Positions 1,208-17,369 of a stretch of 24,137 nt of DNA are shown here, one piece after another. The translations under genes and the position numbers were made by a program. A model generated the notes under the pieces. It was not told where the DNA came from and ran no database searches. It worked only from the letters and a program-made list of their open reading frames with translations. Numbering within the stretch: position 1 is the first letter of the stretch; every line of letters starts with the position of its first letter. The DNA lies in the IMG/VR virus record IMGVR_UViG_2602041549_000015, positions 1 to 24,137 of that record. One strand, written 5' to 3'. The stretch comes from a virus. Taxonomy: Duplodnaviria; Heunggongvirae; Uroviricota; Caudoviricetes.

Positions 1208-1244
1208 AGTGGATAAAATAATTTTACCCACCGGATTTTTACCC

Positions 1245-2402
1245 ATGCTCACCGTTAAGCAGATTGAAGCAGCAAAGCCGAAAGAAAAACCATACCGCCT
1301 ACTCGATGGTAATGGCCTGTACCTTTATGTCCCTGTATCAGGGAAAAAGGTATGGCAGCTTCGCTACAAGATTGACGGTAAGGAGAAAATCCTGACTGTC
1401 GGAAAATATCCGCTTATGACTTTGCAAGAGGCAAGGGATAAAGCATGGACTGCGAGGAAAGACATCTCGGTCGGCATCGATCCGGTAAAGGCGAAAAAGG
1501 CTTCGTCTAACAACAATTCCTTTAGTGCGATTTACAAGGAATGGTACGAGCACAAGAAGCAAGTCTGGTCAGTAGGCTATGCAAATGAACTTGCAAAAAT
1601 GTTTGATGACGACATTTTACCTATCATCGGCGGCCTTGAAATTCAGGATATTGAGCCGATGCAACTACTGGAAGTAATCCGCAGATTTGAAGATCGCGGG
1701 GCAATGGAGAGAGCCAACAAAGCACGCAGAAGATGCGGCGAGGTTTTCCGTTACGCTATTGTCACCGGAAGGGCTAAATATAACCCGGCACCTGACCTTG
1801 CAGACGCCATGAAAGGATACCGCAAGAAGAACTTCCCGTTTCTTCCAGCAGACCAGATCCCTGCATTCAACAAAGCACTGGCAACATTTTCAGGAAGCAT
1901 CGTATCGCTCATTGCGACAAAAGTTTTACGCTACACAGCACTAAGAACGAAAGAGCTTCGTTCCATGCAATGGAAGAACGTCGATTTTGAAAACAGGATT
2001 ATCACTATCGACGCCAGTGTGATGAAGGGCCGCAAAATTCATGTGGTTCCTATGTCAGGCCAGGTGGTTGAACTTCTCACTACGCTAAGCTCAATAACCA
2101 AACCAGTCTCAGAGTTTGTTTTTGCCGGGCGCAACGATAAGAAGAAGCCAATCTGCGAGAACGCGGTATTGCTTGTGATCAAACAAATAGGCTATGAGGG
2201 TCTGGAAAGCGGTCACGGATTCAGGCATGAATTCAGCACAATTATGAACGAGCACGAATGGCCCGCTGATGCTATTGAAGTGCAACTGGCACATGCCAAC
2301 GGCGGATCTGTGCGCGGGATTTACAACCATGCTCAGTATCTCGATAAGCGCAGAGAAATGATGCAATGGTGGGCGGACTGGCTTGATGAAAAGGTGGAGT
2401 GA
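1245..2402 (+). CDS. intS: Tyrosine site-specific integrase, P4/IntS-type
   Basis: Track ORF 1209..2402 begins at a GTG; the ATG at 1245 gives MLTVKQIEAAKP..., the typical N-terminus of P4-like integrases and the 385-aa length I recall for K-12 IntS; transcribed away from the tRNA. Confidence 0.9.
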   Translation: MLTVKQIEAAKPKEKPYRLLDGNGLYLYVPVSGKKVWQLRYKIDGKEKILTVGKYPLMTLQEARDKAWTARKDISVGIDPVKAKKASSNNNSFSAIYKEWYEHKKQVWSVGYANELAKMFDDDILPIIGGLEIQDIEPMQLLEVIRRFEDRGAMERANKARRRCGEVFRYAIVTGRAKYNPAPDLADAMKGYRKKNFPFLPADQIPAFNKALATFSGSIVSLIATKVLRYTALRTKELRSMQWKNVDFENRIITIDASVMKGRKIHVVPMSGQVVELLTTLSSITKPVSEFVFAGRNDKKKPICENAVLLVIKQIGYEGLESGHGFRHEFSTIMNEHEWPADAIEVQLAHANGGSVRGIYNHAQYLDKRREMMQWWADWLDEKVE

Positions 2403-2493: not shown

Positions 2494-4677
2494 CTATATT
2501 ATGGAAGTAACAGTGCCATTTATAGTTGATTTTATTTGTGATGTTGGATTTGGCCTTACTTGCACTGTACCTCTATTACCAGATGCGCCAATAAAGACAT
2601 TATAGCCATTTATCTCATTAAAGTCTGAAAAAAGACTTACTGGAGCAGAATTTTGTGCAACTGGTGCAGCTGATGATGTCCCGTATCGCTTCAGTATGCC
2701 AGGCGTAACAGCTGCAGAAGCACCATCCCTCCTGCACGTAATATCCAGGTCAAACGTGTAACCATCAAACCCGAACTGTGTAGCATCCTGAAAAAATTTC
2801 ATAACTTCAGTGACTGAACCTCCAGCAGGTGCAACGTGATTGAAGCCAGAGAAAATCATCCGGTTAAATCTTTCATCCTGAGAAACAGAATCGAACGTCT
2901 TTTCAATACGAAGGCTGCTGAATCCATATACCCCATTCAAGATAATTGAATTTTGAGCACGAGTGTTCATTTTAATATCCAGCTTAGGCGCATTGTATAG
3001 GTCAATGCGTTCACCAACACTTCCAGAACGGTCTGTTATGTTTACCGAGATAGAAAACGTAGTGTCATTTCCTTCAATTTTTATAGATGAACGCCTGTCT
3101 ACTTCAATTGTAATAGCCGGTGAAGCCTCTGCTGTTGATGTTCCAATGACAGTCAAAGCTCTAACGTATTTTGTTATATACATCTTTGCCTCTTCGCTGT
3201 AGTTTCCTGCGATATAAGTTGCCTGACTGTCACCAATTCTTATCTCACCAGTTTCAATTGTACTTGAAATTACTGACGTCCCAATAATGGGAACTTCAAC
3301 CTTAGTCCCAGACTGGAACTCAGAAGTCATTGGTCTATCAAGTGTTATAACGTTTCCCGAGATTGCTGTGATACGACGTGTCTCTACACCTCCAGTTGAA
3401 TTGGTGAATGCAATTTCAAACAACGTATCAAAACCAGAAGCATCAGCAACAGTAACAGTGTTGTCATTTACATATGCTGTAGATGTCAGGGTTGTGCTCA
3501 TACCTTCAATAGACAAAGTACACTGATTGTTAGCGCTGCTCCCAATGTAACCCATTAATTTGATAGAGTTATTTCTAACGCGAACACCATACTTAGTTCT
3601 GGTGGAGCCATTTGTTGTTCCTTGCGAATGACCATGCCAATTAATAACCAGATGTAAAAGATCATAATTACTGATGCGGTGATCAATTGATTTATTTCTA
3701 ATAGTAGCATAAGGAGCTGTGTATACGGCTCTTGCTGATGCACTAGCGCCATTATTAGAAATGTTTCCATTTACGGTGAAACCTTCAACTGTTTGGTGCC
3801 AGTGGAGACGATCTCTGCTCCTGTCGCGAGGATCAATTCCCACATGGTGCATCGATATGTTAGATGACGTTGACATGATTATTGTTGCGTCATTTCCAGC
3901 TCCTGAAAAAATAAAACCACGGCGATCAACATCTAAATCAAACTTATCAGAAAAGTAAACTCCTGACGGGAATGTGAGTTTGCTCATAATCTGATTTGCG
4001 CGAGCAACTCTACAAGCCTCGGCAATCGCTGCGGAATTTTTTTCCGGGTCTGAACTTCCAAAGCCAAACTCTGAATAGTCCATCTCAGATGTAAGGATTA
4101 AATTAGCAAAATAACCATTTGGAAGATTGAGTGAATAAGTATTATCTATCTTCTCTAATCCAACATACCATTCAGACTTCACTTTTATTCCGTGCTGGTT
4201 CATGTATGTGAAAACTGTTATTTTTTCAATACCAGTAAAGTCTTTCTGCAGCAACTGAGAAACGCTTTGAATAATGTAAGGTTTTGTCTGATTAAAATCC
4301 TGTGCTGTTTCATCTAGTATAAGCAATTGGTTCTTAAATTGGTCTGGATCATACTTCAGCACATTCGGAAAATAGAACTGCTTCGCCCCATATGCATCGT
4401 ACACAGCCATAGAATGGCCTTGCACAGTTACGAATTTGGCAATCTGCCCGTTATATACAGGGTAACCAGCGGCGTTAATGATGATTGGTTGCGAAACGGG
4501 AACATGAGAGCCGTCTTCGTTCTCTACATAAACCTGAATCTGGTTTTCTGGATTTACCGGGTCAGTGTCAATTTTACCGATATAAATTTTGCCATTGGCT
4601 ACGGCTTTAAAAGAACGAGCCATAGTGAAGAGTTGCGAAGGCATCGATACAATCACATTGGCTGTAATATCTGTCAT
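2494..4677 (-). CDS. Tailspike protein: P22-type head-binding N-terminal domain with a different receptor-binding domain
   Basis: 727 aa; first ~115 aa ([46 protein letters not shown]...VLKYDPDQF) match the conserved head-binding domain of P22/Sf6/HK620 tailspikes as I recall them; the remainder is Ser/Thr/Asn/Gly-rich like a beta-helix but matches no tailspike I can recall. Confidence 0.85.
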
Positions 4678-4777: not shown

Positions 4778-5734
4778 TCAGTAGTTATGTACTGAAGGAG
4801 GTAATTCTTTATTCTTAAGTCTCATCCATGCGGAAAGATTCGTTGGTCCGTCTGGCTCATTAATATCAACATCTCGTGTGTGGTTTATTAAAACGTCTCT
4901 CGCCATTCCGATAACATACGAGAACTCATGACCGTAGTCGTAGCATCTGCCGGAATAGTTCGATTGAATTTGTTTTAATGCCGGATACAGTTCGCGGAAT
5001 AATGCCTGTGAGCGGTTGGCATAATCCCATAACCATACAAGGCTGTTTGCTTCTTTTGCAGAAAGCTCGTTTGCTTTCTTCTCTTGTTTGCCGATTAACT
5101 CGCCTTCAAGCACTACCCTGTGGATGTACTCTACGGCCAGCGGGATTTGTTCAATTGAAAGTTCATCAATGCTGTCAATACCAAAACGCTGATGAACCAT
5201 ATTGTATGCATCGTCATAGCGAAGTCCTTTCTTTCCTACCAGCATGTTTACTGCATCGCGTAGCGGTGTGCGTTCAGCTACTGAAGTTTTACCTCCAATA
5301 GCCTTCCTCTCTTGTGTGGCAGTAACCATTGCGTCATATGCACGGATAACCTTCAGCGCAAAGGCTGCGCTAATCCACATAGCGTAGGAGTAAACAAGCT
5401 CCTTGCACACGTAGGTTCCACCATATCGACCTTTCTTAGAAAGGACGGGATTCTTATTCTGCATATCCGCAGAATTAAAAATTTCATTAATCAATTCAAT
5501 AGTTTCATTTCTACGCATGAAGAAAGCTGGCTGATGTTTTTCCTCCTTCCCAGACGCTACATGAAGGTCATTAAGCGAGTAACGCCCCTCTGAATCCATA
5601 TGAATCTTGACGTCAGAAATGATGATGCTATTAGTGCAATTTACAGTTGACTTTGCTAAGCTTGACATATCAATAATACCTCGTAAGTTTTGTTGATACC
5701 GAAGCCCTGACTGTTCCAGCAGTTGGGGCTTCAA
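4778..5734 (-). CDS. KilA-N domain protein; candidate antirepressor occupying the ant position
   Basis: 318-aa ORF; N-terminal segment [14 protein letters not shown]...[25 protein letters not shown] fits the KilA-N/APSES-like pattern as I recall it; start overlaps the upstream stop (ATGA); internal starts at 5668 or 5599 are possible. Confidence 0.6.
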
Positions 5735-6000
5735 CGTTTTTCCACTTCATTTTGAATTTGCTTAAGTAGCATATTTGTCTCGTCAAGCCTCTTGTTAATA
5801 CGGTCAAGGCTTTCTACTAAATCGTTATGTGCATGTGATACTTCGTAATTTGAGACTGATTTTTTTTCCTCTATCGTCTTTGTCAATCGTTCCCCTGATT
5901 GATACATATTGATTAACGATGTAAAAATCACGAGCAAGCAAACTACAATGATTGCGCCAGACAAAAATTGTAAAGAACGATCAAGCAATGACACCTTCAT
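5731..6000 (-). CDS. Small single-pass membrane protein with C-terminal coiled coil (89 aa)
   Basis: Track ORF; one hydrophobic segment ([15 protein letters not shown]) followed by a charged helical tail; start overlaps the arc stop by an ATGA. Confidence 0.5.
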
Positions 6001-6155
6001 ACCGTAATCCCCTCTCTCTTCAGGCTGTCCATCACTCGCTTGTAAATCTCAGAGTTAACAGATCGCCCGTTCTCTTCAGCTACCTTGCGTACCAAATCCA
6101 ATACTTCTTTAGGCCACCGCAAATTGAACTGCGGCATTTTGCTCATTCCTTTCAT
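5997..6155 (-). CDS. arc: Arc repressor (ribbon-helix-helix)
   Basis: Below the track size cut-off, read by eye: MKGMSKMPQFNL...[40 protein letters not shown], close to P22 Arc as I recall it; GAGGTG ribosome-binding site upstream; intactness is supported by the overlapping plus-strand track ORF 5952..6173 reading through this region. Confidence 0.75.
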   Translation of the reverse strand: MKGMSKMPQFNLRWPKEVLDLVRKVAEENGRSVNSEIYKRVMDSLKREGITV

Positions 6156-6171
6156 GTTCACCTCACATTAT

Positions 6172-6218
6172 AGGTCCACCGTGGACCTATTGAGAATATA
6201 GTAGAGTGCTTCTATCAT
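6172..6218. promoter_or_regulatory. immI control region: Mnt operator (palindrome AGGTCCACGGTGGACCT) and Arc operator (ATAGTAGAGTGCTTCTATCAT) between divergent arc and mnt
   Basis: Both sequences match the P22 Omnt and Oarc operators as I recall them; order (Omnt nearer arc) matches P22; divergent promoters are expected here. Confidence 0.7.
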
Positions 6219-6245
6219 GTCAATACACTAACTTGGAGTGATGGC

Positions 6246-6503
6246 ATGGCTAGAGATGATCCGCACTTTAACTTCCGTATGCCTTTGGAAGTAAGAGAAA
6301 AATTGAAATTAAGAGCCGAGGCTAACGGAAGGTCAATGAACTCTGAGTTATTACAAATCGTTCAGGATGCTCTCTCAAAGCCATCACCGATTGCAGGCTA
6401 TCGCAACGAAGCTGAACGCTTGGCTGATGAACATTCGGATATCGTAAAAAATATGGTATTCGAAACTTTAAAAAAACTTTATGGAAAAGAAAAGAATGAG
6501 TAA
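6246..6503 (+). CDS. mnt: Mnt repressor (ribbon-helix-helix)
   Basis: 85-aa track ORF MARDDPHFNFRMPLEVREKLKLRAEANGRSMNSELLQIVQDALSKP... closely matches P22 Mnt as I recall it. Confidence 0.9.
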   Translation: MARDDPHFNFRMPLEVREKLKLRAEANGRSMNSELLQIVQDALSKPSPIAGYRNEAERLADEHSDIVKNMVFETLKKLYGKEKNE

Positions 6504-6765
6504 TAAAGAGCTTGTTAAAAAATCAAATAACTGTGTCGATGCATATGCTGACTCATTTGGATACTCTTCGTTTGGTGACGGTTCCCAGCGATTAGGTTCA
6601 ATTTCTTTTTTTCATAATGTAACTGAATGGCCTGTTGATGAAAGCGGTGATGTTGAAAACATAAAGTACAATATTGCCACCATTAGAATGCCTGAAGAAT
6701 TGATGCTTAAATTGGCGGACTTCATTCGCGACCAACATTATAAGGCTAAAACAAACGAGTCGTAA
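6481..6765 (+). CDS. Hypothetical small protein (94 aa; 89 aa if started at the ATG at 6496), first gene after mnt
   Basis: Track ORF overlapping the mnt 3' end; no recognisable family; C-terminus YNIATIRMPEELMLKLADFIRDQ looks like a beta-strand followed by a helix. Confidence 0.5.
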   Translation: MEKKRMSNKELVKKSNNCVDAYADSFGYSSFGDGSQRLGSISFFHNVTEWPVDESGDVENIKYNIATIRMPEELMLKLADFIRDQHYKAKTNES

Positions 6766-6768
6766 TCA

Positions 6769-7218
6769 ATGATGAAACACGATTATTACGAAGCTCCAAA
6801 TCTAACTGAAAAGCTTGAACAAGCGGAAAAATCATCATCTTTGTACACAAATCCAATTTCTCAGTCATCAGGAATGTCTGGCATGAATATGGGCATGCTA
6901 CAATCAAGTGGTGGTGGAGCTGGGAGTAACAACATGCTTGAGGCTAGGGTTGCACGGTTAGAGGCAGATGTTGAAAACATTAAGACCAATCTATCTGAGG
7001 CAAGGTCTGACATCTCTCGTTTGCGTGATATCTCAGCTGATACATCCAGAGATGTTGCGGTGGTCCTGCAAAAAATAGTAGATGTAGACGAAAAATTATC
7101 AAAAAAACCGAGTAAGAGCGAAGTCCAGACATTGATATCTTCTGCAGTAAACAAGCAAATACTATGGACCATAGGGACTGGATTTGCTCTTTTAGGGATA
7201 GCTAAATATATATTTTAG
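6769..7218 (+). CDS. Hypothetical tail-anchored membrane protein with coiled coil (149 aa)
   Basis: Track ORF; Gly/Ser/Met-rich N-terminal segment, central heptad-like region, single C-terminal hydrophobic helix ILWTIGTGFALLGIAKYIF; starts 3 nt after the preceding stop. Confidence 0.55.
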   Translation: MMKHDYYEAPNLTEKLEQAEKSSSLYTNPISQSSGMSGMNMGMLQSSGGGAGSNNMLEARVARLEADVENIKTNLSEARSDISRLRDISADTSRDVAVVLQKIVDVDEKLSKKPSKSEVQTLISSAVNKQILWTIGTGFALLGIAKYIF

Positions 7219-7287
7219 CTCACCTCATCAGCTATCTTCTTGTTCCATTCACTCAGTGCCACTGCAAGGAAAACTAAGGAGGTTAGT

Positions 7288-7677
7288 GTGAAGCGATTTC
7301 TTGCTGGTATGTTTTTATTCATATCTTTTGGGGCTACAGCAGAATGCTGGGTTGTTGGAGATATGCGCGGAATAAGCTATTCAGAACGAAATAATTTCCA
7401 ACCGGAAGAAGATGGTTTTAGTGGAACATTTATCATTAAGACAAGCGGTGAAGATGCCAGCATCACATATTCTGGGACGGATGCTGGCGGCATGGCTTAC
7501 AAAGCATTGTCTAAAAACTCCATCATAGGAATCGGCGCGAATGGCGAAACTCAACGAGTTATCGACTCATGGGTAATACATCCTAATGGAACAGTTTTAA
7601 TGTCGAAAACCATTTCTGGTTATGGAAACATGGATTCAACCAAAGCTTTTGTTGGAAAAGTAAAAAGAAAATGTTAA
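7288..7677 (+). CDS. Hypothetical secreted (periplasmic) protein with Sec signal peptide
   Basis: GTG start at 7288 preceded by a strong AAGGAGG ribosome-binding site; N-terminus KRFLAGMFLFISFGATA then ECW fits a signal peptidase I site; mature part ~110 aa with Cys near both ends; the track's upstream ATG (7240) has no ribosome-binding site. Confidence 0.55.
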   Translation: MKRFLAGMFLFISFGATAECWVVGDMRGISYSERNNFQPEEDGFSGTFIIKTSGEDASITYSGTDAGGMAYKALSKNSIIGIGANGETQRVIDSWVIHPNGTVLMSKTISGYGNMDSTKAFVGKVKRKC

Positions 7678-7701
7678 CGATTGAATCCAATTTCCCATAC
7701 G

Positions 7702-9543
7702 TTACTGCTGTGTTGCCTCAGTGGCAAGCAGCGGTCTGATGGCATTTGCAGCGTTACTTAATGCTCTTTCATAGGCTGGCGTTCCAGCTTTAGTGTTTGC
7801 CAGACGTAAGAGAGCATTCCTTGCTGCTTTGGACTCATACAAGCGCATCATTGCACCGAAACCAGCCTCAAGCCCCATTGATACGCCAAGAGTCGCAGTT
7901 GCGCCAATCGTCCTTATCCTATTGGCTTGCGATTGCCCCGTCTGAGTTACTACATTTGCGGTGTCTGACCTTGCTGTTTGCTGTAGAACTTCATGAAGAG
8001 CATCAAGCTCTTTCATGTGCTTTCCAGAAAAAATAGTGTTGTAAATTTCACCGCCTGACTGAGATTTCAGCTTATTAACTTCAGTGATGAACTTGGCTGG
8101 AGAGTCACCGGCCTTTTCCGCTATTTTGCTGACGTAAGCTGCACGCATAGCATCTTTCCCTTTATCATCCAATGCGCTCCAGATTCGTTTCACGTCAGAT
8201 GGTTTTCTGCTTAATACAACGGTATTTATAAGTTCAGGACTGGCTTCACTGCTTGCCTTGTTGAGCTTGTTAGCAATGTTTTTATTAAGCACCTTATTAT
8301 AAACGTTTGCATAATCGGAATTTGCTTTAAGGTATTTTGCTGCGTCTGATGCACCGAGGTTTTTTGCAACTGCGTTACGAAGATCTTTTGACATTGCATT
8401 CTCTACCATATTGGTAGCTGCTTTTGCCTGGTTGGGGAAGACCATAGCATCTCCCTGAACATTAGATCTAAATGCTGTTCTGTGCTGACGCAAGAGATCA
8501 AACGTAACATCCAAATCAGTTGCAGGGTTTGCTAATTCTTCACGTAGGTTACGCAAGGATGTAAGCAGGCTTTGATTGGCAGACGTCCCAAGCCGTTCCT
8601 GTCTTGCGATCGCTGTATTCAGAGCATTCATGGTATTTGTGGTATCAACTGCGGCATTACCCATTTTATTGGTGACGTCATTGATAACAGCGCCAGCGGC
8701 ATCCTTCCGCCCCCTTAACGTGGTGGTCAGAGATTTCACCACATCATCAGGGTTGTACTCACCAAAACGGTCAAAATAATTGCTTACCAGCTTACTACGC
8801 GTTGCATATTGCTCCGCACGCTTTGAACCTGTCCCTAGCAAAGCCCCCTCAGCATCCTGAGTAAGGCCACGAGTGAAAGCATTTTTCGGCGTGATTACAT
8901 CAGATGTCATAGGTGTCACGCCCATCGATTCTGATGTGGCAATTTTTTTCGCTACTTCTGGCGCAATATCGCCTTTTATAGCCGTTATTCCACGACCTAT
9001 TCCCTTTGCTGCTGCGGAAAGAACACCCTGAGCAGCAAGGTTAACTCCGGCATTTTTAGCTGCATTTTGTGCGAAATCGCCTTTCTGATTTGCGGCCTCT
9101 GCCAGTGATCCAATAGCCATGCTTCCTGCCGTTCCAACTCCTGGAACTAAATACCCGCCAATTGTTTCTCCAGCTTGCGCATAAGGGTCTGTTGGTCGAT
9201 CTACTGGACGATAGACATCGTCCAAAACCTTGGGGCCACCAAGCCCCTGGCTGATTGCATTAATCAGACTTGCGCCACCCTGCAATACGTCAAATGGTAT
9301 GTTTACCAGACCACGACCAGCCTGCTCTGCAATTTGCCCTGCACTTTGACCACCTGTGAGCCAATCGCCAGCTTGTTGCATCAATGATGGTTCTTCACGT
9401 GCTGGTTCATTATTGGCCTGATTAACTGTTTGTTGCTGAACAGCCTGACCAGCAAAATACTCATCAATGGCGGTGCCAATATCTTCCGTGCTCGTACCAT
9501 CAGGGAAGGTAAATGTCTTACCGTTTGCAGTTACTTTCATCAT
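7702..9543 (-). CDS. Ejection (internal virion) protein gp16
   Basis: 613 aa; matches P22 gp16 in sequence as recalled, in size and in position; start overlaps the gp20 stop (ATGA). Confidence 0.9.
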
Positions 9544-10955
9544 TCCACCGTAAATTGAATGCCTGATTTTGAGGTATATGATCCAACCTGATTCCGTGGT
9601 TCTCCTGAAGGTGTCGAATCTTGTGCTGGCGCTGCGTCAGTATTCATTGACATATACCGCTTAACGGCACTCCCCAATGATTCACCTTTTTTAACATCCA
9701 ACCCCAATATCTGACCGCCATTACGCGATTGTCCAGGGTTGCCATTCGCGCTCATCCACTCGGCTTTAAACTCATTAAACTGCGCGTTTCGTCGCTCAAG
9801 GTTTGCCATAGCATCAAGCCATCTTGCGACCGTCTCAGGGTTATCCATGTCAGTTGGCGCACCCTGTCGAACGATCTCAACGTCTTTATCCGTTGCTGGG
9901 CCGGGAGGTAGGAATTTAAGAACCTGACTGTTAACAAGGGCATTTTGGCGAATGCGCAAATCACGCAATGTCGTATCGCTTCCGGTAAGTTTTGCGAACA
10001 TGTTCTGTGCGTTACCGAACAAACCTGTCGTTGGTTTTTCTGCTCTGAACTGTTGAGCAAGCGCACTCATGGAATTGGCTGAGTTTGATGATGCTGTGGC
10101 ATTGTTTACAGCCGTCTCGATGCCTTTTTCCATGTTTACTGACAGCTTAGGTGCTTCGCTAATCAACTGCTGAGCCTTTTCCTGCGCTTGCTGCATCTTA
10201 AACCCGAACTCTTGCTGATCCAGAGCCAAGCGTTGTGCTGCGATATTGTGCCCAGTCATTGCTGACTGATAGGAAAGGTTTTGCCCTCTCGCCTGAAGTG
10301 CTTCACCAGCCTGATTGCTGCGGATTGTCTCTGCCAGCCTGCCTCGGTCAATTTCACGACCAGCCATCTTATCCTGAACAGCAAACGCCTTTTCTGGTCC
10401 AAGCGCACCGAGAGACATAGTAGTCAGCATGTGTGATAGCTGCTCTGGATTCTGGATACCTGTCTGAATCATCCAGTCAGCATTAGCACCAACGCGATTT
10501 AACCTGTCCTTGTTGTCAGTAATGAATTTACTGTAGGCTTCCGGTCCCTGAGAAAGAGCGACGTTAGCCCTCATGGCTAAATCGCCCATATCGTTGCGTT
10601 GCTGCTCATTAAGACCGGAAAACGCCTGTTGTGCCTGTGCAACAAACGCTGGATTTTCCTGGGCAAACTTAAATAGTCCCGATGGATCACCAGAAGCCCA
10701 TGCATCAGCGTGAACCTTATTGAACGCACTAATAGCTTTCTGTTGCTGTTCCTGATTGTAAATATCAGCAACTCCAGCCAGACCACGTAACGCGGTCAGG
10801 CCAACGTTATTTGCACCTGAGCGAGCCAACTCATTGTTTTCGCGGATCAGACCAAGCGTTGCGTTAATGTCGCTTGCCTTTGGCGCATTCTCATTTTGCG
10901 TACCGATACCAGCCAGAAAACCACCAGAATTAATACCCTGTTGCCACGTAGCCAT
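9540..10955 (-). CDS. Ejection protein gp20
   Basis: 471 aa, same length as P22 gp20; sequence and position match. Confidence 0.9.
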
Positions 10956-10965
10956 TGATTACCCC

Positions 10966-11661
10966 TTAAAACAACGAGCCAAGCAGACCAAGACCGCCGC
11001 CAACAGCGGCACCAATACCTGTACCAATACCAGGAACAATGCTGCCAAGTTGTGCTCCAGCAATTGCTCCAGAGGCAGCCCCGCCTATTGCAGATTGAAG
11101 GCCGGAAGGTCTGTTGGCATTTGCCGCTGCAAGAGCCGCACTTTGCTGCGAAATCTGACTCATGTTGTTGGCATATGTCTGCCCTGCGTTTGCCTGACCT
11201 TGCAGAGCACCAAGCCCAACGTTTGCCAGATTCTGGTAGTTGTTCATCTGACCAGACAGCCACTGCTGACCAAGCGTTGGTGCGATTGCTGCTAACTGAT
11301 TACCGGTTGCAGTGGAACCCAATCCACCTGTTGCTTCCGCTGCCGCCAGACTCTGATAGCGAGCCTGACCAGCAAGATCTTTATACTGCTGAGAGTTGTA
11401 ATACTGGTTAAGTGCCTGACCTTGCCCTTCCAGAGACGATAAGTTCTCGAGGCTGCCGACATACTTCTCAGCCAGAGGAGTAAACGGCTTCAGGTTGTTC
11501 ATGATGGTGTTGAACTGCTGATCTTGCTTGTCTGCGGCATACTTCTGAGCTTCTGCGGCATACTTTGCGCTTTTATCAGAACTGCCACCTTTCCCGCCTT
11601 TTTCAGGGCAATAAGGTTCCTCGCCGCGCAGTTTTCTGCCCAGCTTAAATGCATATAACAT
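10966..11661 (-). CDS. Ejection protein gp7
   Basis: 231 aa; MLYAFKLGRKLRGEEP... with Gln/Asn-rich middle and Gly-rich hydrophobic C-terminus, matching P22 gp7 as recalled. Confidence 0.9.
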   Translation of the reverse strand: MLYAFKLGRKLRGEEPYCPEKGGKGGSSDKSAKYAAEAQKYAADKQDQQFNTIMNNLKPFTPLAEKYVGSLENLSSLEGQGQALNQYYNSQQYKDLAGQARYQSLAAAEATGGLGSTATGNQLAAIAPTLGQQWLSGQMNNYQNLANVGLGALQGQANAGQTYANNMSQISQQSAALAAANANRPSGLQSAIGGAASGAIAGAQLGSIVPGIGTGIGAAVGGGLGLLGSLF

Positions 11662-11663
11662 GG

Positions 11664-12119
11664 CTATCTCCCGTGATTCAGGAAGTCGATTAGTTCTTCG
11701 CGTGTGGCGCTGTAAAAAGTCACGTCATCCACGCCTTTGAAGTATTTCTTGATGGTTCCTACACGCTTAAGGCCAATCATTGCGCAGTACATCTGACCGT
11801 GGCGGAATTTGCGTGCAGCAAATGATGTGACGCACTGAACGGTGGTGTTGGTCAAAATGTATCGCCAGAACGCCATCCCTATTTCCTTGCTGAATCCGCG
11901 AATCTCTGGCAGGTACATGGCGTGGCAATCAAAGGTCAGCGGCTGAATCTCCTGATAATAAACAATTCCGCCGAACTGCCCGTGCACGCTCACCTCAAAG
12001 TAACGGCAATCATGTTTGTAGTCGTATCCATCACCGTTGTTGCTTCCGGCAATAATGTCAGGGTGATTTCCGACTGCTTCGATCAGGTCGATGTTTCGCG
12101 TTGGTTTGAACTGAATCAT
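11664..12119 (-). CDS. gp14-like virion assembly protein (called by position)
   Basis: 151-aa ORF between the tail needle and gp7 genes, the position of gene 14 in P22; I cannot confirm the sequence from memory. Confidence 0.6.
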   Translation of the reverse strand: MIQFKPTRNIDLIEAVGNHPDIIAGSNNGDGYDYKHDCRYFEVSVHGQFGGIVYYQEIQPLTFDCHAMYLPEIRGFSKEIGMAFWRYILTNTTVQCVTSFAARKFRHGQMYCAMIGLKRVGTIKKYFKGVDDVTFYSATREELIDFLNHGR

Positions 12120-12967
12120 TACTGCTCCGCGATTATCTTGATGGTTGTGGCAGTAAACGCCGCACCATTTGACTGAATGGTTAACGTACTGCCATTTGTG
12201 GCAAGAAAGCCGTCTTTATCCACGCTGAAGAACGTAGCTAACAGGATGTTGTCGGTTGTTGTCGCCGCATTACGACTGCTGACCAACGTGTCAGGAACAG
12301 AGCCGGAAAAGGTTAGCTGCATTGACCTGTTGGCGGTTCCGCTGGGCCACGTCCCGACGATCGACAGCTTGAAGAACAAGGTTTTGTTCTCGTTGAACAC
12401 AACCATCTTGTTGTTAACGGTGTCGAAGAATGGTGCCAACGTGCCGGATGACGGCGTGAGCGTTTTCAGCAGGCTAACAAGGTTGGTCGGCGCTGTCGGG
12501 ATGGTTACAGATACGCCAGAGTAAACAACCTCTGACTTCTTGCGAGTAGTGGCATACTCCAGAGCATCAATGCGCGTTTCATGGTCTGAAACCTGCAACT
12601 CCAGCGACTGAACTCTGGTATCAAGCGACGCAATATCGCTTTCATTCTGAGCGATTCGCGTTTCATGGTCCTGAAGAGTTGATTCTGCCTGGCTGATTCG
12701 CTCCTCATGATTAACAAGCGTTGCTTCCGCAGCAGAAATTCGCTGCTCATGGTCAGCGAGAATCACATCCTGCTCATCGTTCCTGACTTGTGCGTCATAA
12801 GCGCCCTGTCCGGCCTCGTTGGCCTTGTTCGCCACATTACCAACATCAGTACCCTGTGCGATAACGTAAAGCAGATACGACTGCGAGAAGATATTGCGTG
12901 GAAGTACTGATGTGTCGAGTCGTGTAGCCTGAATGATTACCGGCACATTGAGATTAGAATCCGCCAT
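12119..12967 (-). CDS. Tail needle protein gp26 with C-terminal knob domain
   Basis: 282 aa; N-terminus [43 protein letters not shown]... matches the gp26 N-terminal domain, followed by heptad repeats and a ~130-aa C-terminal domain absent from the 233-aa P22 gp26 (Sf6-type knob architecture). Confidence 0.85.
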
Positions 12968-14385
12968 TACTCAATCCTTATCTGAGCGCCAGACAGAGTG
13001 ACAGGTGACTTCGTGATAACGCGCAATTTGAAGCCGACATTTTTCCTGATGCGCCCGACTCGCTTCCACAAAACGCGTTTGTCGTAAACGAACGGTTCAT
13101 TCTGCTCAATCATCTGCTCACGCCCGTAATTTATGCCGTCAGTGGTTGCAGAGAGGAACAGGCGGTCGGCGTACTGCGCAACGCCAGTTGACGATTCAAC
13201 TTCAAGGTCGAAAACTCTGGCGTTATCCGCTTTGAACAACGGAGTAAACAGCAGGTGTTCCTGTTGCTTGTCGTACTGGCTGCTGATGTCGAATTGCAAT
13301 TTCCCGGTCACGGACTCCAGTTTATCGCCGCACGTTATCTGATTTCCTTCGTAAATGAAGTCGATAGCGCGGTACACATCGTCATACAGACCTGTTTTCA
13401 GCACACACCATTGCGGACCATTGGCGCTTGAAGATGCGTCGTACACGAGAACATGGCGTGCAAGATGGATAATCAGCAACTCATGCGCATCAAATCGCAG
13501 AGATTCCATCACGCCATCAGCCAGTTCATCAGCAGTGTAGGAGCGGAGTATTTTCTCAATGCTCGCGCTGGCGATTGGTGACACCTGACCAGAGCCGATG
13601 ATGTATACAGACGGCGCACCCGTTGCCGGATTGCTGATGAACGCATACGAATCAGCAAACTGCGTTTTGCAGTAGGTTCCGGCAATGCCTTTCTGCACCA
13701 TTAACGATGGCTGGGCGACATACAAAGCAGCACCAACGGTGGTTGCCCCAGTCAGGGAAAAATACTCAATCGTCGATGAACCAAAACAGACGATGAAGTC
13801 TCGCCATGTTCCGATGCCAATGATGCCGTCAGGCTGCGATTCTGCACGATATTGTGCGCTGTAGCGGTCAGGATGCGATTCGTCTTCAAGGTCAGTGATA
13901 AACCATGAATCAGTTCCGTCTTTTGACCACGCATAACGCCCACGTAAACGCGTAATGTCGCGAACCGAACCTAACTCATACTGAGTGAATCCGCTGTCTG
14001 TAGGCCAGTTTGAGACTGTTTTAACCGTGCCATCATAGCGATACTCGACCAGTTGACCATTAACACCTACCGCCTGTGATGTTCGACCATGCGCCATTGA
14101 TACGCGACCACTTCCGGCGACGTCACCGACTTCGCTTTCTCCTTTGTACAGTTTGCCACCACACACGCGATAAACAGCATTCTGCGCCATGTTGTACTCG
14201 ACGCCGCGAGATACACCGTTCACATCAGAGCGTTTGGCAATGCCAGGGAATGAGCGAAGATATCCGCTGCTGTTCAGGATTTCTTTGGGTGTAGCCAGCA
14301 TATTCACTGGCAGATAGTCGATATAGTCGGCGTTTCGAAAGTCTTTGCCGACACCTTTCATAAGCGGAAGTTGCTGAATCGGCAT
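12967..14385 (-). CDS. Tail accessory factor gp10
   Basis: 472 aa, same length as P22 gp10; sequence and position match. Confidence 0.9.
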
Positions 14386-14886
14386 TTATTCGCCCCCGTT
14401 ATCGCAAGGTTCCTTCCGGTGGAAGTAATTCCAACCATTCCACTTCGCCAACTGGTTACCGCTACCAACAGGCATACGGTTTGGATAACCGGACTTACAT
14501 TTAGCGGCTTTTGCTCTGTCCATTGCAGACAGTTTGACGAGTCGCTCTTTCCCGTATCTGGCAGTGGTTATAAGTTTTGCTGGCGCTTCCAGCGCATAAT
14601 CCGGAGCAATGCGGCAGGCAAGGTTGAAAATGACGGCATTGATGGCGTTATTTGATAAACCGTGCTCATCGCCCTGATCCGGAGCGACATCTGCATCAGC
14701 AAAAATGTAGCCAACGTTGATACCAGGTGACGCATCACCGCCAAGCCATTCAGCCATCATCATTTCAAGGTCGTTGACGCCGTCTTCCATAGACTGCGGT
14801 TCGACATCGGTTAACGTGGCATTTGATGCCACACCGAGCTTACGTAATGCCGCAAGAACTAAATCACCCTTCGTTGTCAGGTTCAT
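14386..14886 (-). CDS. Tail accessory factor (head completion protein) gp4
   Basis: Track ORF 14386..14967; starting at the internal Met ([33 protein letters not shown]...) gives 166 aa, the length of P22 gp4; the upstream QSQSQSQ extension comes from the hexanucleotide repeat read in another frame. Confidence 0.85.
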
Positions 14887-15106
14887 CTGCTGCCGCCTTA
14901 GGTTTTCGACCAGGCTTTTTACGCTGTTTTTCTTCTGGCTCTGGCTCTGGCTCTGGCTCTGCAACATCCTTCAGAAGATCATCAGGATGTGCAAACCAGC
15001 CAGCATCCAGATATTCCTGAAGCTCTTCGGCTTTCACGATTTCAAAGTCGTATCCAACGCCTTTCCATTTCTTCATGTCGCCATGACGAAAGATCATGTG
15101 TGTCAT
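14864..15106 (-). CDS. Hypothetical small protein between the coat and gp4 genes (80 aa) with an EPEPEPEP repeat and basic tail
   Basis: Internal ATG of track ORF 14864..15286 ([32 protein letters not shown]...), preceded by GGAGA; the longer track ORF would overlap the coat gene 3' end. Confidence 0.5.
14935..14961. repeat. Tandem hexanucleotide repeat (CTGGCT) x4.5
   Basis: Seen directly on the plus strand; encodes EPEPEPEP in the 80-aa ORF and QSQSQSQ in the overlapping frame. Confidence 0.8.
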
Positions 15107-15120
15107 GCTTGTCTCCAGAT

Positions 15121-15144
15121 AAAAAGGGAGCCGAAGCTCCCTCT
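15121..15144 (-). terminator. Terminator-like hairpin immediately after the coat gene (possible attenuator)
   Basis: On the minus strand GGGAGC-UUCG-GCUCCC followed by UUUUU, between the coat stop (15150) and the next start (15106). Confidence 0.5.
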
Positions 15145-15149
15145 GGTTA

Positions 15150-16445
15150 TCACGCGGTCTGATTAGGCAGACCAACACCAATTGCTTCTGGTCGTACAGC
15201 ACATGCTGAATACCACACAGCAATACGGCACTTACCAGACAGAGTGTTGATATCACCCTGCGTTGCGAAGATGCCGTTAACACCAATACCAGGAATGCTG
15301 AAGGAAGACGTTTTCATGCCAGCAAACAGTTCATGGGTTACCGGGATCGGCTGAGACAGAAGGCGGATTGAGTCATCAGCCCAGAACACGTTAGCGGTGG
15401 TTGTTGCCACGTTCAGAACGTTTACCGGAGTGGTATCAGCAAGAGAGGTGTTTACGTTAGCGTAAGCCTTCTCTTCTTTTGTCAGTGACGCGTCATCCAG
15501 TGCAATCGGTTTCGGCGTGATTTCGATGTGAGTACCATCGATCACACGGGTGATTGAGAAAGTAGCATCATCAGTTAGCACGTTCTTCGCCATCTGAGAC
15601 AGGAATTTCACACCAGTGAAACTGATTTTGTCGCCGCGCTTAAATCCGGTGGTGGAGGATACGGTCACCGTTGCAACACGGTTGTCGACGTTCTCTTTGT
15701 TACCATCGGTATCAAGGGTGTATGCCTGCGGCTTAAACTTCTGCGCACCAGAAACAGTTACACCAGTAGCGGTTGACTTGGTAACTGCCGGAAGTTTCGG
15801 TGAGCGAAGAATTTCATCAAAGCCAGCAATCTGACGCTGAATAGTACCGTTGCGATACGCTTCTTCAGGAACGCGACCGAAGATGTCACCATCTACCAGG
15901 TTGCGGCCTGCTTTGCGGTAATCATCAGGGTTCAGGAAGTAACTGATGCCCATATCGCGGTTTAGCTCACGGGAGAACATCAGGCGCTCTGCATCAGACA
16001 CAAAATCCCAGCCAGACAGGCCAGTAGATGGACCAATTGCGCGGGTATCGTGAACAACAAGTGAGCCCATTTCAGTTGCCTGTTTGGCAATCGCTGACTC
16101 AATGTTATTCGCCAGTTTTTTGGCGGATGCCTGGATGCGGCGACGGTAAGAACGCTCATCACGCAGGTCATCTGCACGAAGCTCGAAGAAATCGTTATCC
16201 GGATCACCCATGTTGCATTTCACGGAGAGCTCCAGAATCCCTGTTGCGTTGCCAGTTAAATCCCAGCCAGTCTGGGTTGGCGCTTCCTGCTCAACAGGCA
16301 TCCACACGGTGTTGCTTGAACGCTGCATGGATTCTGCCGGAGGGGTGTATTTTGTCACTTTGGACGCCATTGGCGTCAGGTTCTGGACGGTTTCGATGAT
16401 TTCATCCAGAGCATACGTGACCAGTTGACCTTCATTTAATGCCAT
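15150..16445 (-). CDS. Major coat protein gp5
   Basis: 431 aa; matches P22 coat protein gp5 as recalled. Confidence 0.95.
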
Positions 16446-17356
16446 TATCGAATTCCTTTATTCAGTTGCGCCTTAAGCTTGCGGTATGTCTCTACATCCC
16501 CTTTGTTTGCTGCCGCTTCCATCTGCTTTTCAATCGCAGATATATTTGCAGCAACAGCGTGTCCCTGAATGGGTTCATCAGGTAGCGGGGCTTCTGAAAC
16601 AGGTTTGGCTCGAGGCTTGAGAGTTAAACGTTCTGACAGTCGAGTGAGTTCAATCAGCGCGGATTGCCCGTCCATCGCCAGCAACTGGCGTGTTTTCTCA
16701 GGATTAGCACCAAGGTGATACATGAGAGCGGCGGATTTCTCCGGGAAGAGGCGCATGATGTCGGCACCGACTGCTTGCGGCACCAGTTGCATGAATGCAT
16801 CCTCTTTCTCCTGATAGTCAGGGATATTGAGCTTTTCCGCTGCGTCGTAGTGCTTACGGGCTGCCTCGACGTATTGCGCTGATTGCTGGGTGAACTCCTG
16901 AGTTTTGCGACCCTGCTCGGCGACAGCCTGGCTTCGCGCGTCCATAGCCTTGATCTGCCATTCACTGTTTGCCTGCTGGAAGGCAGCCAGTGCGCGGCTC
17001 TGGTCATAGTCGTACTTAGCCAGTGCGTCTTCGGAAAGATAATCGTTAGGGTCTGGTTGTTTTGGTAACTCAGGGTTCACCCGCAGGTGCTCCGGCAACT
17101 CTCCCCGCTTAACCGCTTCCATCTGTTGCTCAAGCTCACGCTGGCGTTTGCGTTCGATGCGGCGACGGGCAAATTCAGCATTAGTTGCCGGGTCTTGTTT
17201 TGGTTTCTCATCGTCTTTCAGGACAATCTCGAAGCCTTCTTCCTGACCTGCGTTGTCGTTGGCATTATCGACAACTAAGCCATCAGCAGATGCCGCTGCA
17301 TGATTGCCGGGCAGGGTTAATTCTTCAGAAGCCTGAATGTCGGTGGTTTGGTCCAT
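16445..17356 (-). CDS. Scaffolding protein gp8
   Basis: 303 aa, same length as P22 gp8; sequence matches as recalled. Confidence 0.95.
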
Positions 17357-17369
17357 GATTAACTCTCTC

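Follow-up and report, generated by a model that had tools for sequence, protein, structure and literature searches.

The window analysed here is a stretch of 24,137 nucleotides (IMG/VR record IMGVR_UViG_2602041549_000015) from a P22-like prophage of E. coli, in which the repressor gene mnt is followed by three plus-strand genes, here called ORF1, ORF2 and ORF3. The mnt gene (6246-6503, plus strand) encodes an Arc/Mnt ribbon-helix-helix maintenance repressor, which matches the Pfam families Arc (1.4e-27) and Repressor_Mnt (3e-16), and it is the first gene of the plus-strand unit. Between arc and mnt lies a divergent pair of promoter-like sequences (6190-6223), Pmnt on the plus strand (6190-6218, TTGAGA-17-TATCAT) and Pant on the minus strand (6223-6195, TTGACA-17-TATATT), whose placement agrees with that in P22 immI. 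The three open reading frames were found where a preliminary description of this DNA had placed them, at 6481-6765 (94 aa), 6769-7218 (149 aa) and 7240-7677. ORF3 converges, across a gap of 24 nt, on a minus-strand gene outside the cassette (7702-9543), a homologue of the ejection protein gene 16 that carries the PGAP label 'P22-gp16 family phage DNA ejection protein' in relatives. The stretch had been described as AT-rich, and its GC fraction is indeed 0.393 (39%, 6481-7677), compared with 0.467 in gene 16 and 0.506 (51%) in the late operon (9540-21035).

The three genes sit between the homologues of gene 16 and gene 9, as SieA genes do, and their earlier assignment to the slot of sieA was correct: this is the known hypervariable 'ant moron' or immI region of P22-like phages, in which P22 has sieA (PMC2629481, PMC10883804). 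The sieA gene of P22 likewise lies in the interval from gene 16 to mnt, shares its strand with mnt and is expressed from the prophage (PMC10883804). However, SieA is a polytopic inner-membrane protein, whereas the products of ORF1, ORF2 and ORF3 have at most one hydrophobic segment each and resemble none of the SieA types A, B and C. No sieA gene was found in the slot of this prophage.

Although the positions of the frames held, two of the start codons did not. ORF1 starts at ATG 6496, where both the family alignment and phrog_4231 begin, and not at the alternative in-frame ATG at 6481; its 94-aa frame matches phrog_4231 (2.9e-52) from residue 6. The corrected gene (6496-6765, plus strand) encodes 89 aa and overlaps the mnt stop (6503) by 8 nt. 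The true start of ORF3 is GTG 7288, five bases past a perfect TAAGGAGGT at 7275-7283, and this start block shows no variation across five loci. On their substitution patterns and PHROG matches, all three are genuine genes and not chance reading frames. Their dN/dS values range from 0.05 to 0.16 (ORF1, 0.05 against E. coli SE11; ORF2, 0.11 against Klebsiella; ORF3, 0.12-0.16 against Emek and FORC_031), which indicates purifying selection, and each matches a PHROG family at E values of 1e-52 to 1e-61, all of unknown function.

Scans of ORF1, ORF2 and ORF3 against Pfam, NCBIfam and PADLOC returned nothing significant, the best match in PADLOC-DB 2.0 having an E value of 0.042. The same scans of other members of the ORF1-ORF2 family and their partners (see below) were likewise without significant result; PADLOC-DB 2.0 matches to these proteins were at 9e-5 or weaker, in coiled-coil stretches of LmuB, PbeC and JetC. 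When PDB sequences were searched with family profiles, there was no match for ORF1 or ORF3, and for ORF2 there were only matches of the coiled-coil type (Lpp, GCN4), which we judged to be noise. In the literature, nothing relevant came up for ECs2991/ECs2992, for HK544 gp40/41 or for any named system that occupies this slot. The preliminary description had recognised none of the three proteins. This still applies to ORF1 and ORF2, which match no library of known families, but not to ORF3, which sequence and profile comparison connected to Hex.

The arrangement from which cotranscription with mnt had been proposed was borne out: the genes are on the mnt strand, no terminator-like site occurs from mnt to 7677, and the 69-nt gap between ORF2 and ORF3 holds neither a promoter-like nor a terminator-like site. 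Furthermore, relatives of ORF2 and ORF3 are found directly after prophage repressor genes elsewhere, and this position argues for expression in the lysogen. In most of the E. coli prophages that carry it, the ORF3-type gene is next to a divergently oriented gene and is preceded by an upstream region of its own. That region is lost in the window, so that expression of ORF3 would here depend on read-through from Pmnt. We infer that, in the lysogen, Pmnt most likely drives transcription of ORF1-ORF2 and ORF3 along with mnt.

The stretch 6481-7677 comprises two independently mobile accessory units, ORF1-ORF2 and ORF3. UPF_BP1 has mnt-ORF1-ORF2 without ORF3, while Emek and ST-35 have ORF3 without ORF1-ORF2, and of the 5,426 complete E. 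coli genomes only one has all three genes. A total of 147 genomes carry ORF3, which, at the loci examined, adjoins gene 16 and retains its own upstream region. Homology between the window and these loci starts just 18 nt 5′ of the GTG, at a mosaic junction that coincides with the ribosome-binding site (7270-7287, plus strand, AAAACTAAGGAGGTTAGT) and from which the window resembles the hex-like genes of other prophages. The three proteins had previously been proposed to form one envelope-located module for exclusion or abortive infection, and the adjacency of the genes on one strand, the absence of a terminator-like site between them, and the prediction that one product is membrane-anchored and another exported would all suit such a module. 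The rarity of the three-gene set already disfavours it, however, as do the mosaic junction and the usual occurrence of ORF3 alone beside gene 16. When the slot is compared across P22-like prophages, the other mnt-ORF1-ORF2 loci have an unrelated third gene (of 101, 33, 75 or 62 aa). We therefore regard a single module as highly improbable. The envelope location also applies in part: export is predicted for ORF3 alone, whereas the predictions place ORF1 and nearly the whole of ORF2 in the cytoplasm.

ORF1, the partner gene of the pair, encodes an acidic protein (pI 5.0) without a hydrophobic segment, in agreement with the small soluble product described before. Its family is sparse, with only 8 representatives among 1.84 billion proteins. 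An AF2 model (pLDDT 78) has three strands and a C-terminal helix. The C-terminus (TIRMPEELMLKLADFI) resembles the start of the strand-helix unit of Arc/Mnt proteins, but BLASTP of ORF1 against Mnt gave no match.

ORF2 (6769-7218, plus strand) had been described as tail-anchored, with a low-complexity stretch, a coiled coil and one membrane helix, and its sequence agrees with this. Residues 1-30 (6769-6858), beginning MKHDYYEAPNL, form an N-terminal segment that co-occurs with ORF1-type partners. Residues 31-55 (6859-6933) are a low-complexity hinge rich in Gly, Ser and Met, which ends in GGGGxDDMLE in the family. Residues 56-149 (6934-7218) are the conserved effector module, a coiled coil followed by a hydrophobic helix and the stop codon. 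The helix (residues 131-149, 7159-7215) is the only hydrophobic segment and lies at the very C-terminus, with a top KD19 hydropathy of 1.57. ORF2 lacks a signal peptide, and its first 130 residues are highly charged and predicted to lie in the cytoplasm. XhlA-type 'hemolysin' (phrog_937) and tail-anchored ElaB/YqjD-type proteins also combine a short coiled coil with a membrane helix at the C-terminus, but ORF2 gives only a weak PHROG match to the former (E 0.0019) and no match to Pfam XhlA or DUF883 at E≤1.

The ORF1-ORF2 pair is a mobile member of a widespread, uncharacterised two-gene family that is found after prophage repressors in many enterobacterial prophages. In 77 of 78 IMG/VR loci, the ORF2-type gene has an upstream partner frame on the same strand, and across these 78 viral contigs the partner usually lies 3′ of a CI-type or Mnt repressor gene, also on the same strand. 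The next-upstream genes encode 47 distinct proteins, of which 34 have an HTH_3 domain, 24 a Peptidase_S24 domain and 1 an Arc/Mnt domain. The order mnt-ORF1-ORF2 is conserved in P22-like prophages of Serratia, Leclercia and Klebsiella. Most family members, however, reside in lambdoid prophages and not in P22-like ones, and the position after a repressor recurs in HK544, VT1-Sakai, Klebsiella, Pectobacterium and Enterobacter. In 151 E. coli genomes there is a match of 85% identity that runs through ORF1 and 58 codons into ORF2; at the one of these loci that we inspected (SE11), ORF1 (95% amino acid identity) and a variant of ORF2 follow an XRE/CI repressor, in the rex slot. The location differs in Salmonella phage 29485, where a relative of ORF2 is part of an insertion that immediately precedes the tape-measure gene.

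The two halves of the family behave differently. The C-terminal modules of the effectors from 77 IMG/VR loci form a single homology cluster; that of ORF2 is 59% identical to the module in Salmonella phage 29485 and 32-35% identical to HK544_040 and VT1-Sakai H0053. The partners, on the other hand, fall into at least seven mutually unrelated clusters, and no relatedness of ORF1 to the partner proteins of HK544, of Klebsiella or of the zinc-ribbon type was detectable. The N-terminus of the effector varies along with the partner. Effectors of SE11, Klebsiella and Leclercia that share the N-terminal motif of ORF2 each adjoin an ORF1-type partner (the motif is also present in a Brenneria protein, P0054), while effectors with other partners have different N-termini. 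The hinge of ORF2 is the boundary at which domains are swapped in the family, and tblastn matches to other phages start at residues 52-56.

The arrangement of these pairs recalls lambda RexA/RexB, which also occupy the slot right after the repressor on the repressor strand and combine a soluble with an inner-membrane product. There is, however, no sequence similarity, the Pfam, NCBIfam and PADLOC scans giving only coiled-coil noise. RexB is polytopic, with four helices, and RexA has about 279 aa, whereas the pairs described here have a single C-terminal helix and a soluble partner of 87-154 aa from one of several unrelated families. Both rexAB and bstA are found in the interval from cI to N, a recognised hotspot. 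BstA of BTP1 and other prophages is comparable in being a defence gene tightly linked to a repressor gene, presumably with a common promoter, but it is a single large protein without homology to the pair and is described as mechanistically different from RexAB. Gene position and modularity suggest that ORF1-ORF2 may have an anti-phage role. In such a role, the product of the ORF2-type gene would present its coiled coil to the cytoplasm from a single membrane helix, with the glycine-rich hinge leading to the variable N-terminal peptide. The ORF1-type partner would dock on this peptide and act as a sensor or brake, in a manner like that of lambda RexAB, and a phage cue could then cause ORF2 to form oligomers that damage the inner membrane, so that the infection aborts.

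A small acidic protein paired with a membrane protein would fit a toxin-antitoxin or lysogen-physiology role equally well. Such a pair could serve addiction, with the membrane protein as toxin and the small acidic protein as antidote, or could tune the physiology or induction of the lysogen, as has been proposed for tail-anchored ElaB/YqjD-type proteins and for the effect of RexB on proteolysis, instead of acting on phages. The gene order (small acidic gene first, membrane gene second, with abutting or overlapping frames), the tail-anchored coiled-coil architecture and the lack of a match in the PADLOC defence library agree with this possibility. The combination of at least seven unrelated partners with matching N-terminal peptides on one effector is nevertheless more typical of diversifying recognition modules than of a fixed antidote, and the slots in question otherwise hold the known exclusion genes rexAB, bstA, hex and sieA (PMC10883804 for sieA). 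We consider a role other than phage defence doubtful for the pair, though deserving of serious weight.

We also considered that ORF2, with help from ORF1, blocks DNA injection at the inner membrane, as P22 SieA, HK97 gp15 and T4 Imm do. ORF2 is predicted to be membrane-anchored and occupies the sieA slot beside genes for ejection proteins, and its relative in Salmonella phage 29485 is just upstream of the tape-measure gene; HK97 gp15 occupies a similar moron position. But the helix ends at the last residue, which would leave next to nothing exposed in the periplasm, where the gp20/gp16 conduit assembles. The predicted cytoplasmic location of the charged N-terminal part and the preference of the family for lambdoid prophages also stand against a block to injection, which we regard as quite unlikely.

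ORF3 (7288-7677 from the corrected start) encodes a precursor of 129 aa. The preliminary description had foreseen a secreted protein of about 110 aa with a ribosome-binding site and a signal peptide, and our analysis gives a predicted signal peptide (7288-7341, plus strand, MKRFLAGMFLFISFGATA) that ends in an A-x-A cleavage motif before E-C-W, followed by a mature protein of 111 aa (7342-7677, plus strand) with cysteines at mature residue 2 and at the C-terminus, directly before the stop. The signal peptide is the only membrane-type hydrophobic segment of the precursor. From its sequence, ORF3 looks to be exported to the periplasm. In a structure model, the whole mature chain is one small, soluble beta-barrel; this fold matches many unrelated families and so suggests no specific ligand. 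Two other envelope locations were rejected on the sequence. An outer-membrane beta-barrel would expose hydrophobic strand faces to the lipid and end in an aromatic beta-signal, and ORF3 has neither feature. A lipoprotein of the Cor/Llp type was dismissed because the residues up to the cysteine are T-A-E-C, without a lipobox ([LVI][ASTVI][GAS]C), and a Glu at position -1 is incompatible with one. One homologue of Hex is labelled 'PagP' in the record of phage Huey.

By alignment, ORF3 belongs to the Hex/Sf6 gp38 family and is a distant full-length relative of Hex of phage 434. A tblastn search with ORF3 retrieved 434 Hex and Sf6 gp38 at E values between 1e-6 and 9e-6 with 100% of the query aligned, and the end-to-end identity to them is 28-29%; BLASTP gave 48.9 bits over 137 columns, and hhalign a probability of 98.4% and an E value of 6.1e-15 over 128 columns. 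The reverse tblastn from Hex (E≤1e-3) did not retrieve Emek, ST-35 or ORF3-type genes, so the connection depends on the search in the forward direction together with the pairwise alignment and the comparison of profiles. ORF3, 434 Hex and Sf6 gp38 have in common the signal peptide, the E-C-W start of the mature protein, a C-terminus of the form STK[AS]FVGxV...C and a similar length. The junctions at the mature ends are GATA/ECW...KRKC in ORF3, ANS/ECW...GTCNQ in 434, AYA/KCW...GTCNE in Enterobacter and VNA/DCW...GTCTN in Citrobacter; four lineages thus retain the signal peptide, x-C-W at the start of the mature protein and a cysteine that is the last residue or close to it. A scan of genome contigs for Hex relatives, with a single peptide pattern, added two further loci. 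The ORF3 gene, 434 hex and Sf6 gene 38 lie on the strand of a lysogeny repressor gene and 3′ of it, but 434 hex directly follows the 434-type cI with an ATGA overlap, whereas the diverged ORF3 is in the immI/ant moron region beside gene 16, two genes after its repressor gene.

Lysogens of 434 transcribe hex and cI together from PRM (PMC3564112). Hex is the "heterologous exclusion" gene, which is reported to block P22, a phenotype known for 434 hex only, and P22 exclusion is lost in hex-minus lambda imm434 (PMC3564112, citing Susskind and Botstein 1980). Phage exclusion, the function previously proposed for all three genes, thus gains support for ORF3 from its reported excluding relative, while for ORF1-ORF2 the evidence consists of position and modularity. 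We consider an exclusion or defence role for ORF3 likely. From the periplasm, it could counter infecting P22-like phages no later than the step of DNA delivery, and so have a function analogous to that of SieA.

Hex is, however, annotated as a 'repressor protection protein', with a published cytoplasmic role in which it blocks RecA-stimulated repressor cleavage (PMC3564112). If ORF3 acted in the same way, it would prevent autocleavage of C2/CI-type repressors, and exclusion would be secondary. In favour of this, hex-minus lambda imm434 lysogens release 30-fold more phage in a recA-dependent manner, and, in vitro, a Hex fragment keeps the repressors of 434 and P22 from being cleaved (PMC3564112). 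This stable fragment extends from E43 to N103 of a 158-aa frame and was refolded from guanidine (PMC3564112). E43 is exactly the first residue past the predicted signal-peptidase site, so that the fragment is about half of the mature protein, whereas the homologous mature chain of ORF3 models in its entirety as one barrel. In addition, the signal peptide, the A-x-A/S site and the cysteines at both mature ends are family-wide features, and a periplasmic protein would have RecA and the repressor out of its reach. The conserved signal peptide goes unmentioned in the only biochemical study of Hex (PMC3564112). The signal peptide and the barrel of ORF3 and Hex fit poorly with the cytoplasmic RecA model, and we regard repressor protection as a rather unlikely function of ORF3.

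On balance, we think it somewhat probable that the immI slot of this prophage holds two accessory units, likely transcribed from Pmnt, of which the ORF1-ORF2 pair would be Rex-like and ORF3 would mediate exclusion from the periplasm. More tentatively, it is possible that the pairs represent an undescribed class of modular, repressor-linked anti-phage systems, with swappable sensors and one tail-anchored effector, and that periplasmic Hex barrels stop the delivery of podovirus DNA. Time and again, genes just after prophage repressors have turned out to act in exclusion or abortive infection (rexAB, bstA, hex, sieA), and the ORF1-ORF2 family is a clearly delimited candidate of this class, with one membrane effector and at least seven swappable partners. 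About 3% of complete E. coli genomes, with O26, O103 and O111 strains among them, contain the match of 85% identity to ORF1 and the beginning of ORF2, and an HK544_040-type variant of ORF2 is present in the Stx1 prophage VT1-Sakai of O157 Sakai. If the more tentative proposal is true, the pair family occupies the rex slot in many lambdoid prophages of enterobacteria, among them those of these O groups and the Stx1 prophage of O157 Sakai. As a relative of Hex, ORF3 reveals a second genomic home of the Hex family, in the sieA slot of P22-like prophages. The conserved signal peptide brought out here makes the site of action of Hex, a question since 1980, directly testable, and periplasmic Hex-family barrels, if confirmed, would overturn the published model in which Hex acts on RecA-dependent cleavage in the cytoplasm.

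The window is a piece of a P22-like prophage, and its segment 5700-7750 matches the E. coli APEC O2-211 chromosome at 100% identity. An integrase gene (1209-2402, plus strand) is followed on the minus strand by the tailspike gene (2494-4677), ant (4778-5734), an 89-aa membrane/coiled-coil ORF (5731-6000) and arc (5997-6161). On the plus strand come mnt (6246-6503) and three further genes, ORF1, ORF2 and ORF3 (6481-7677), and then, on the minus strand, gene 16 (7702-9543) and the remaining late operon. Two divergent promoter-like sites at 6190-6223 occupy the position that Pmnt and Pant have in P22. The interval between the gene 9 and gene 16 homologues is the known hypervariable 'ant moron' or immI region of P22-like phages, in which P22 has sieA (for superinfection exclusion), orf59a and mnt on the mnt strand (PMC2629481; PMC10883804). 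Since sieA is present in only 22 of 66 P22-like phage genomes sequenced (PMC10883804), other cargo is expected in this slot. Elsewhere in the window, the tailspike gene is AT-rich like the moron region (GC 0.40) and has different neighbours in prophages that are alike in other respects, suggesting recent exchange of a receptor-binding module. The 89-aa ORF between arc and ant, with an N-terminal transmembrane helix (19 residues) and a coiled coil, matches phrog_27312 (annotated 'unknown function'); E. coli 503440 and WL164 encode an identical protein (WP_001555392.1) at this position, which in phage Emek is taken by orf73. As this ORF lies within the Pant operon, it would be produced when Mnt/Arc repression is lifted.

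The three ORFs that the preliminary description placed after mnt are present, with two start codons corrected. ORF1 starts with the ATG at 6496, as do its relatives and phrog_4231, and shares 8 nt with the end of mnt. The start codon of ORF3 is the GTG at 7288, which lies five bases 3′ of TAAGGAGGT, a block that is invariant in five loci whose sequences upstream of it are unrelated. The stretch is indeed AT-rich (GC 0.393, versus 0.506 in the late operon), and dN/dS against relatives, at 0.05 to 0.16, establishes ORF1, ORF2 and ORF3 as real coding genes. The products have the properties described: ORF1 is an acidic, soluble protein of 89 aa, ORF2 combines a low-complexity stretch and a coiled coil with a hydrophobic helix at the extreme C-terminus, and ORF3 has a classical signal peptide and a mature form of 111 aa. 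No terminator-like site was found between the genes from mnt to ORF3, and neither a promoter-like site nor notable structure was seen in the 69-nt gap 5′ of ORF3. No intrinsic terminator was found at 7678-7760, which spans the gap between the stops of ORF3 (7677) and the convergent gene 16 (7702), so a Pmnt transcript reading past ORF3 would run antisense to the gene 16 3′ end. BTP1, another P22-like prophage, has the antisense RNA STnc6030 over the same gene 16 end, and this RNA excludes BTP1.

The proposal that the three genes form one module does not hold, as all three occur together only once in E. coli genomes (n=5,426). Phage UPF_BP1 has mnt-ORF1-ORF2 without ORF3, and the same order is kept in P22-like prophages of Serratia, Leclercia, Klebsiella and E. 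coli 503440, in each of which a different, unrelated gene comes third. The full ORF1-ORF2 sequence is present in only 4 of the 5,426 genomes; another 151 have an 85%-identical match over ORF1 and the first 58 codons of ORF2. In the one such locus that we inspected, in a lambdoid prophage of strain SE11, a 95%-identical ORF1 and an ORF2 variant directly follow an XRE/CI-type repressor gene, in the slot that rexAB (the abortive-infection pair) occupies in lambda. ORF3 is found in 147 E. coli genomes, and the loci examined adjoin gene 16, with a divergent neighbour and their own upstream region. ORF1-ORF2 is thus a two-gene cassette separate from ORF3, and the arrangement in the window is a recombinant juxtaposition with its junction 18 nt before the ORF3 start.

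ORF3, previously listed as unrecognised, is a relative of Hex, the 'heterologous exclusion' protein of phage 434. In tblastn searches of phage genomes, close copies were found in Salmonella phages Emek and ST-35, and full-length matches of 28-29% identity to one gene of 434 (where it is hex), lambda imm434, HK446, HK633 and Sf6 (gene 38), which lies directly 3′ of a 434-type repressor gene. The pairwise alignment with the 434-type protein spans both end to end, and a profile-profile comparison with Hex gave 98.4% probability (E 6e-15, 128 columns). The genes of two more relatives, from Enterobacter quasihormaechei and Citrobacter sp., likewise adjoin a repressor gene, here of S24 type, whose stop codon they overlap. 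Every branch of the family has kept a signal peptide whose cleavage motif is small-x-small, x-C-W as the first mature residues, and a Cys at or near the C-terminus. ORF3 is therefore a new, diverged Hex-family member in a new genomic position. A further homologue, in Escherichia phage Huey (PQ850609.1, 25922-26323), carries the name 'antimicrobial peptide resistance and lipid A acylation protein PagP', which was probably given wrongly to a small beta-barrel on the basis of its fold. Salmonella lysogens of lambda imm434 exclude P22 unless the prophage is hex-minus, and RT-PCR places hex on the PRM transcript (PMC3564112), so that ORF3, by homology, is in a family for which exclusion has been reported. 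Of the original exclusion or defence reading, it stands that these are prophage accessory genes, probably anti-phage, but they form two units, one with a named relative.

The published Hex work used a 158-aa ORF starting 24 codons upstream of the conserved start (PMC3564112), as we confirmed by translating the 434 sequence (hex, 2429-2905). The stable fragment recovered begins at 'glutamic acid 43' (PMC3564112), which is E19 of the 134-aa protein and the first residue past the predicted signal-peptidase site ANS|ECW; neither a signal peptide nor the periplasm is mentioned in that paper (PMC3564112). Given this coincidence and the leader kept throughout the family, we think that mature Hex and ORF3 act outside the cytoplasm, which is difficult to square with the proposal that Hex inhibits RecA-stimulated repressor cleavage. 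In the ORF3 model, charges on both faces of the last strand, together with the ...KVKRKC C-terminus and negative GRAVY, speak against an outer-membrane protein and argue for a soluble periplasmic barrel; the sequence T-A-E-C excludes a lipobox, and hence a lipoprotein. We favour a mechanism in which ORF3 would block infecting P22-like phages from the periplasm, at or before DNA delivery, by analogy with SieA, whose escape mutations map to gp16 and gp20 (PMC10883804).

The conserved part of ORF2, residues 56-149, comprises the coiled coil and terminal helix, and shares 59% identity with a Salmonella phage 29485 protein and 32-35% with HK544_040 and VT1-Sakai H0053, both encoded after a CI-type repressor gene. 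In Klebsiella, Pectobacterium and Enterobacter prophages, the ORF2-type gene is second of a pair immediately after an HTH_3/Peptidase_S24 repressor gene. We searched IMG/VR with the ORF2 family alignment and analysed 78 loci, in 77 of which a same-strand ORF, encoding the small 'partner', ends at or near the start of the ORF2-type 'effector'. The next genes upstream encode 47 distinct proteins: a Cro/CI-type HTH is present in 34 (in 24 of them with Peptidase_S24), and eight match Phage_CI_repr, two KilA-N and one Arc/Mnt. The main exception to repressor linkage is phage 29485 (1408-2797; also S107, S135 and S137), where an effector with a zinc-ribbon partner follows a KilA-N-domain protein among the tail genes, just 5′ of the tape-measure gene; this locus resembles a moron insertion.

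The effector C-terminal modules form a single homology cluster, whereas the partners fall into at least seven clusters without detectable mutual similarity (the four large ones with 20, 20, 18 and 15 loci). The effector N-terminus ahead of a glycine-rich hinge (GGGGxDDMLE) varies with partner type, and ORF2 of the window shares its N-terminal segment with the SE11 effector while its C-terminal module is nearer to effectors with other partners. The hinge thus marks where modules recombine, and partner and N-terminal peptide move together; this suggests, without proving, that the partner binds the peptide. ORF1 belongs to a very small family, with 8 representatives in a set of 1.84 billion proteins, and its model of three strands and a helix weakly resembles COMM or PC4-like folds. 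Residues 59-75 of ORF1 (window 6670-6720), TIRMPEELMLKLADFI, resemble the strand-helix start of the neighbouring Mnt, FRMPLEVREKLKLRAE; BLASTP does not support a kinship.

With no signal peptide, a highly charged N-terminal part of 130 residues and a sole hydrophobic segment that runs to the last residue, ORF2 should be a tail-anchored protein, almost all of whose chain lies in the cytoplasm. As ORF1 is predicted to be cytoplasmic too, the envelope location earlier proposed for the three-protein module is borne out only in part. A direct block of injection by ORF1-ORF2 is less likely, since nothing of the pair would be exposed to the periplasm. Because the pair joins a soluble and a membrane protein behind the most active lysogenic promoter, and combines a variable recognition-like module with a conserved membrane module, we favour the possibility that it is a Rex-like abortive or exclusion system, with a toxin-antitoxin or lysogen-physiology pair as a serious rival. 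The pair resembles RexAB in position and soluble-plus-membrane design, but is not homologous to it. No Pfam, NCBIfam or PADLOC model matched the ORF1-ORF2 family, the PHROG families that it matches are all annotated 'unknown function', and we found no description of it in the literature. Both units are concrete and cheap to test, and the ORF2 family is widespread; the signal peptide of Hex, for its part, reopens the question of where Hex acts.
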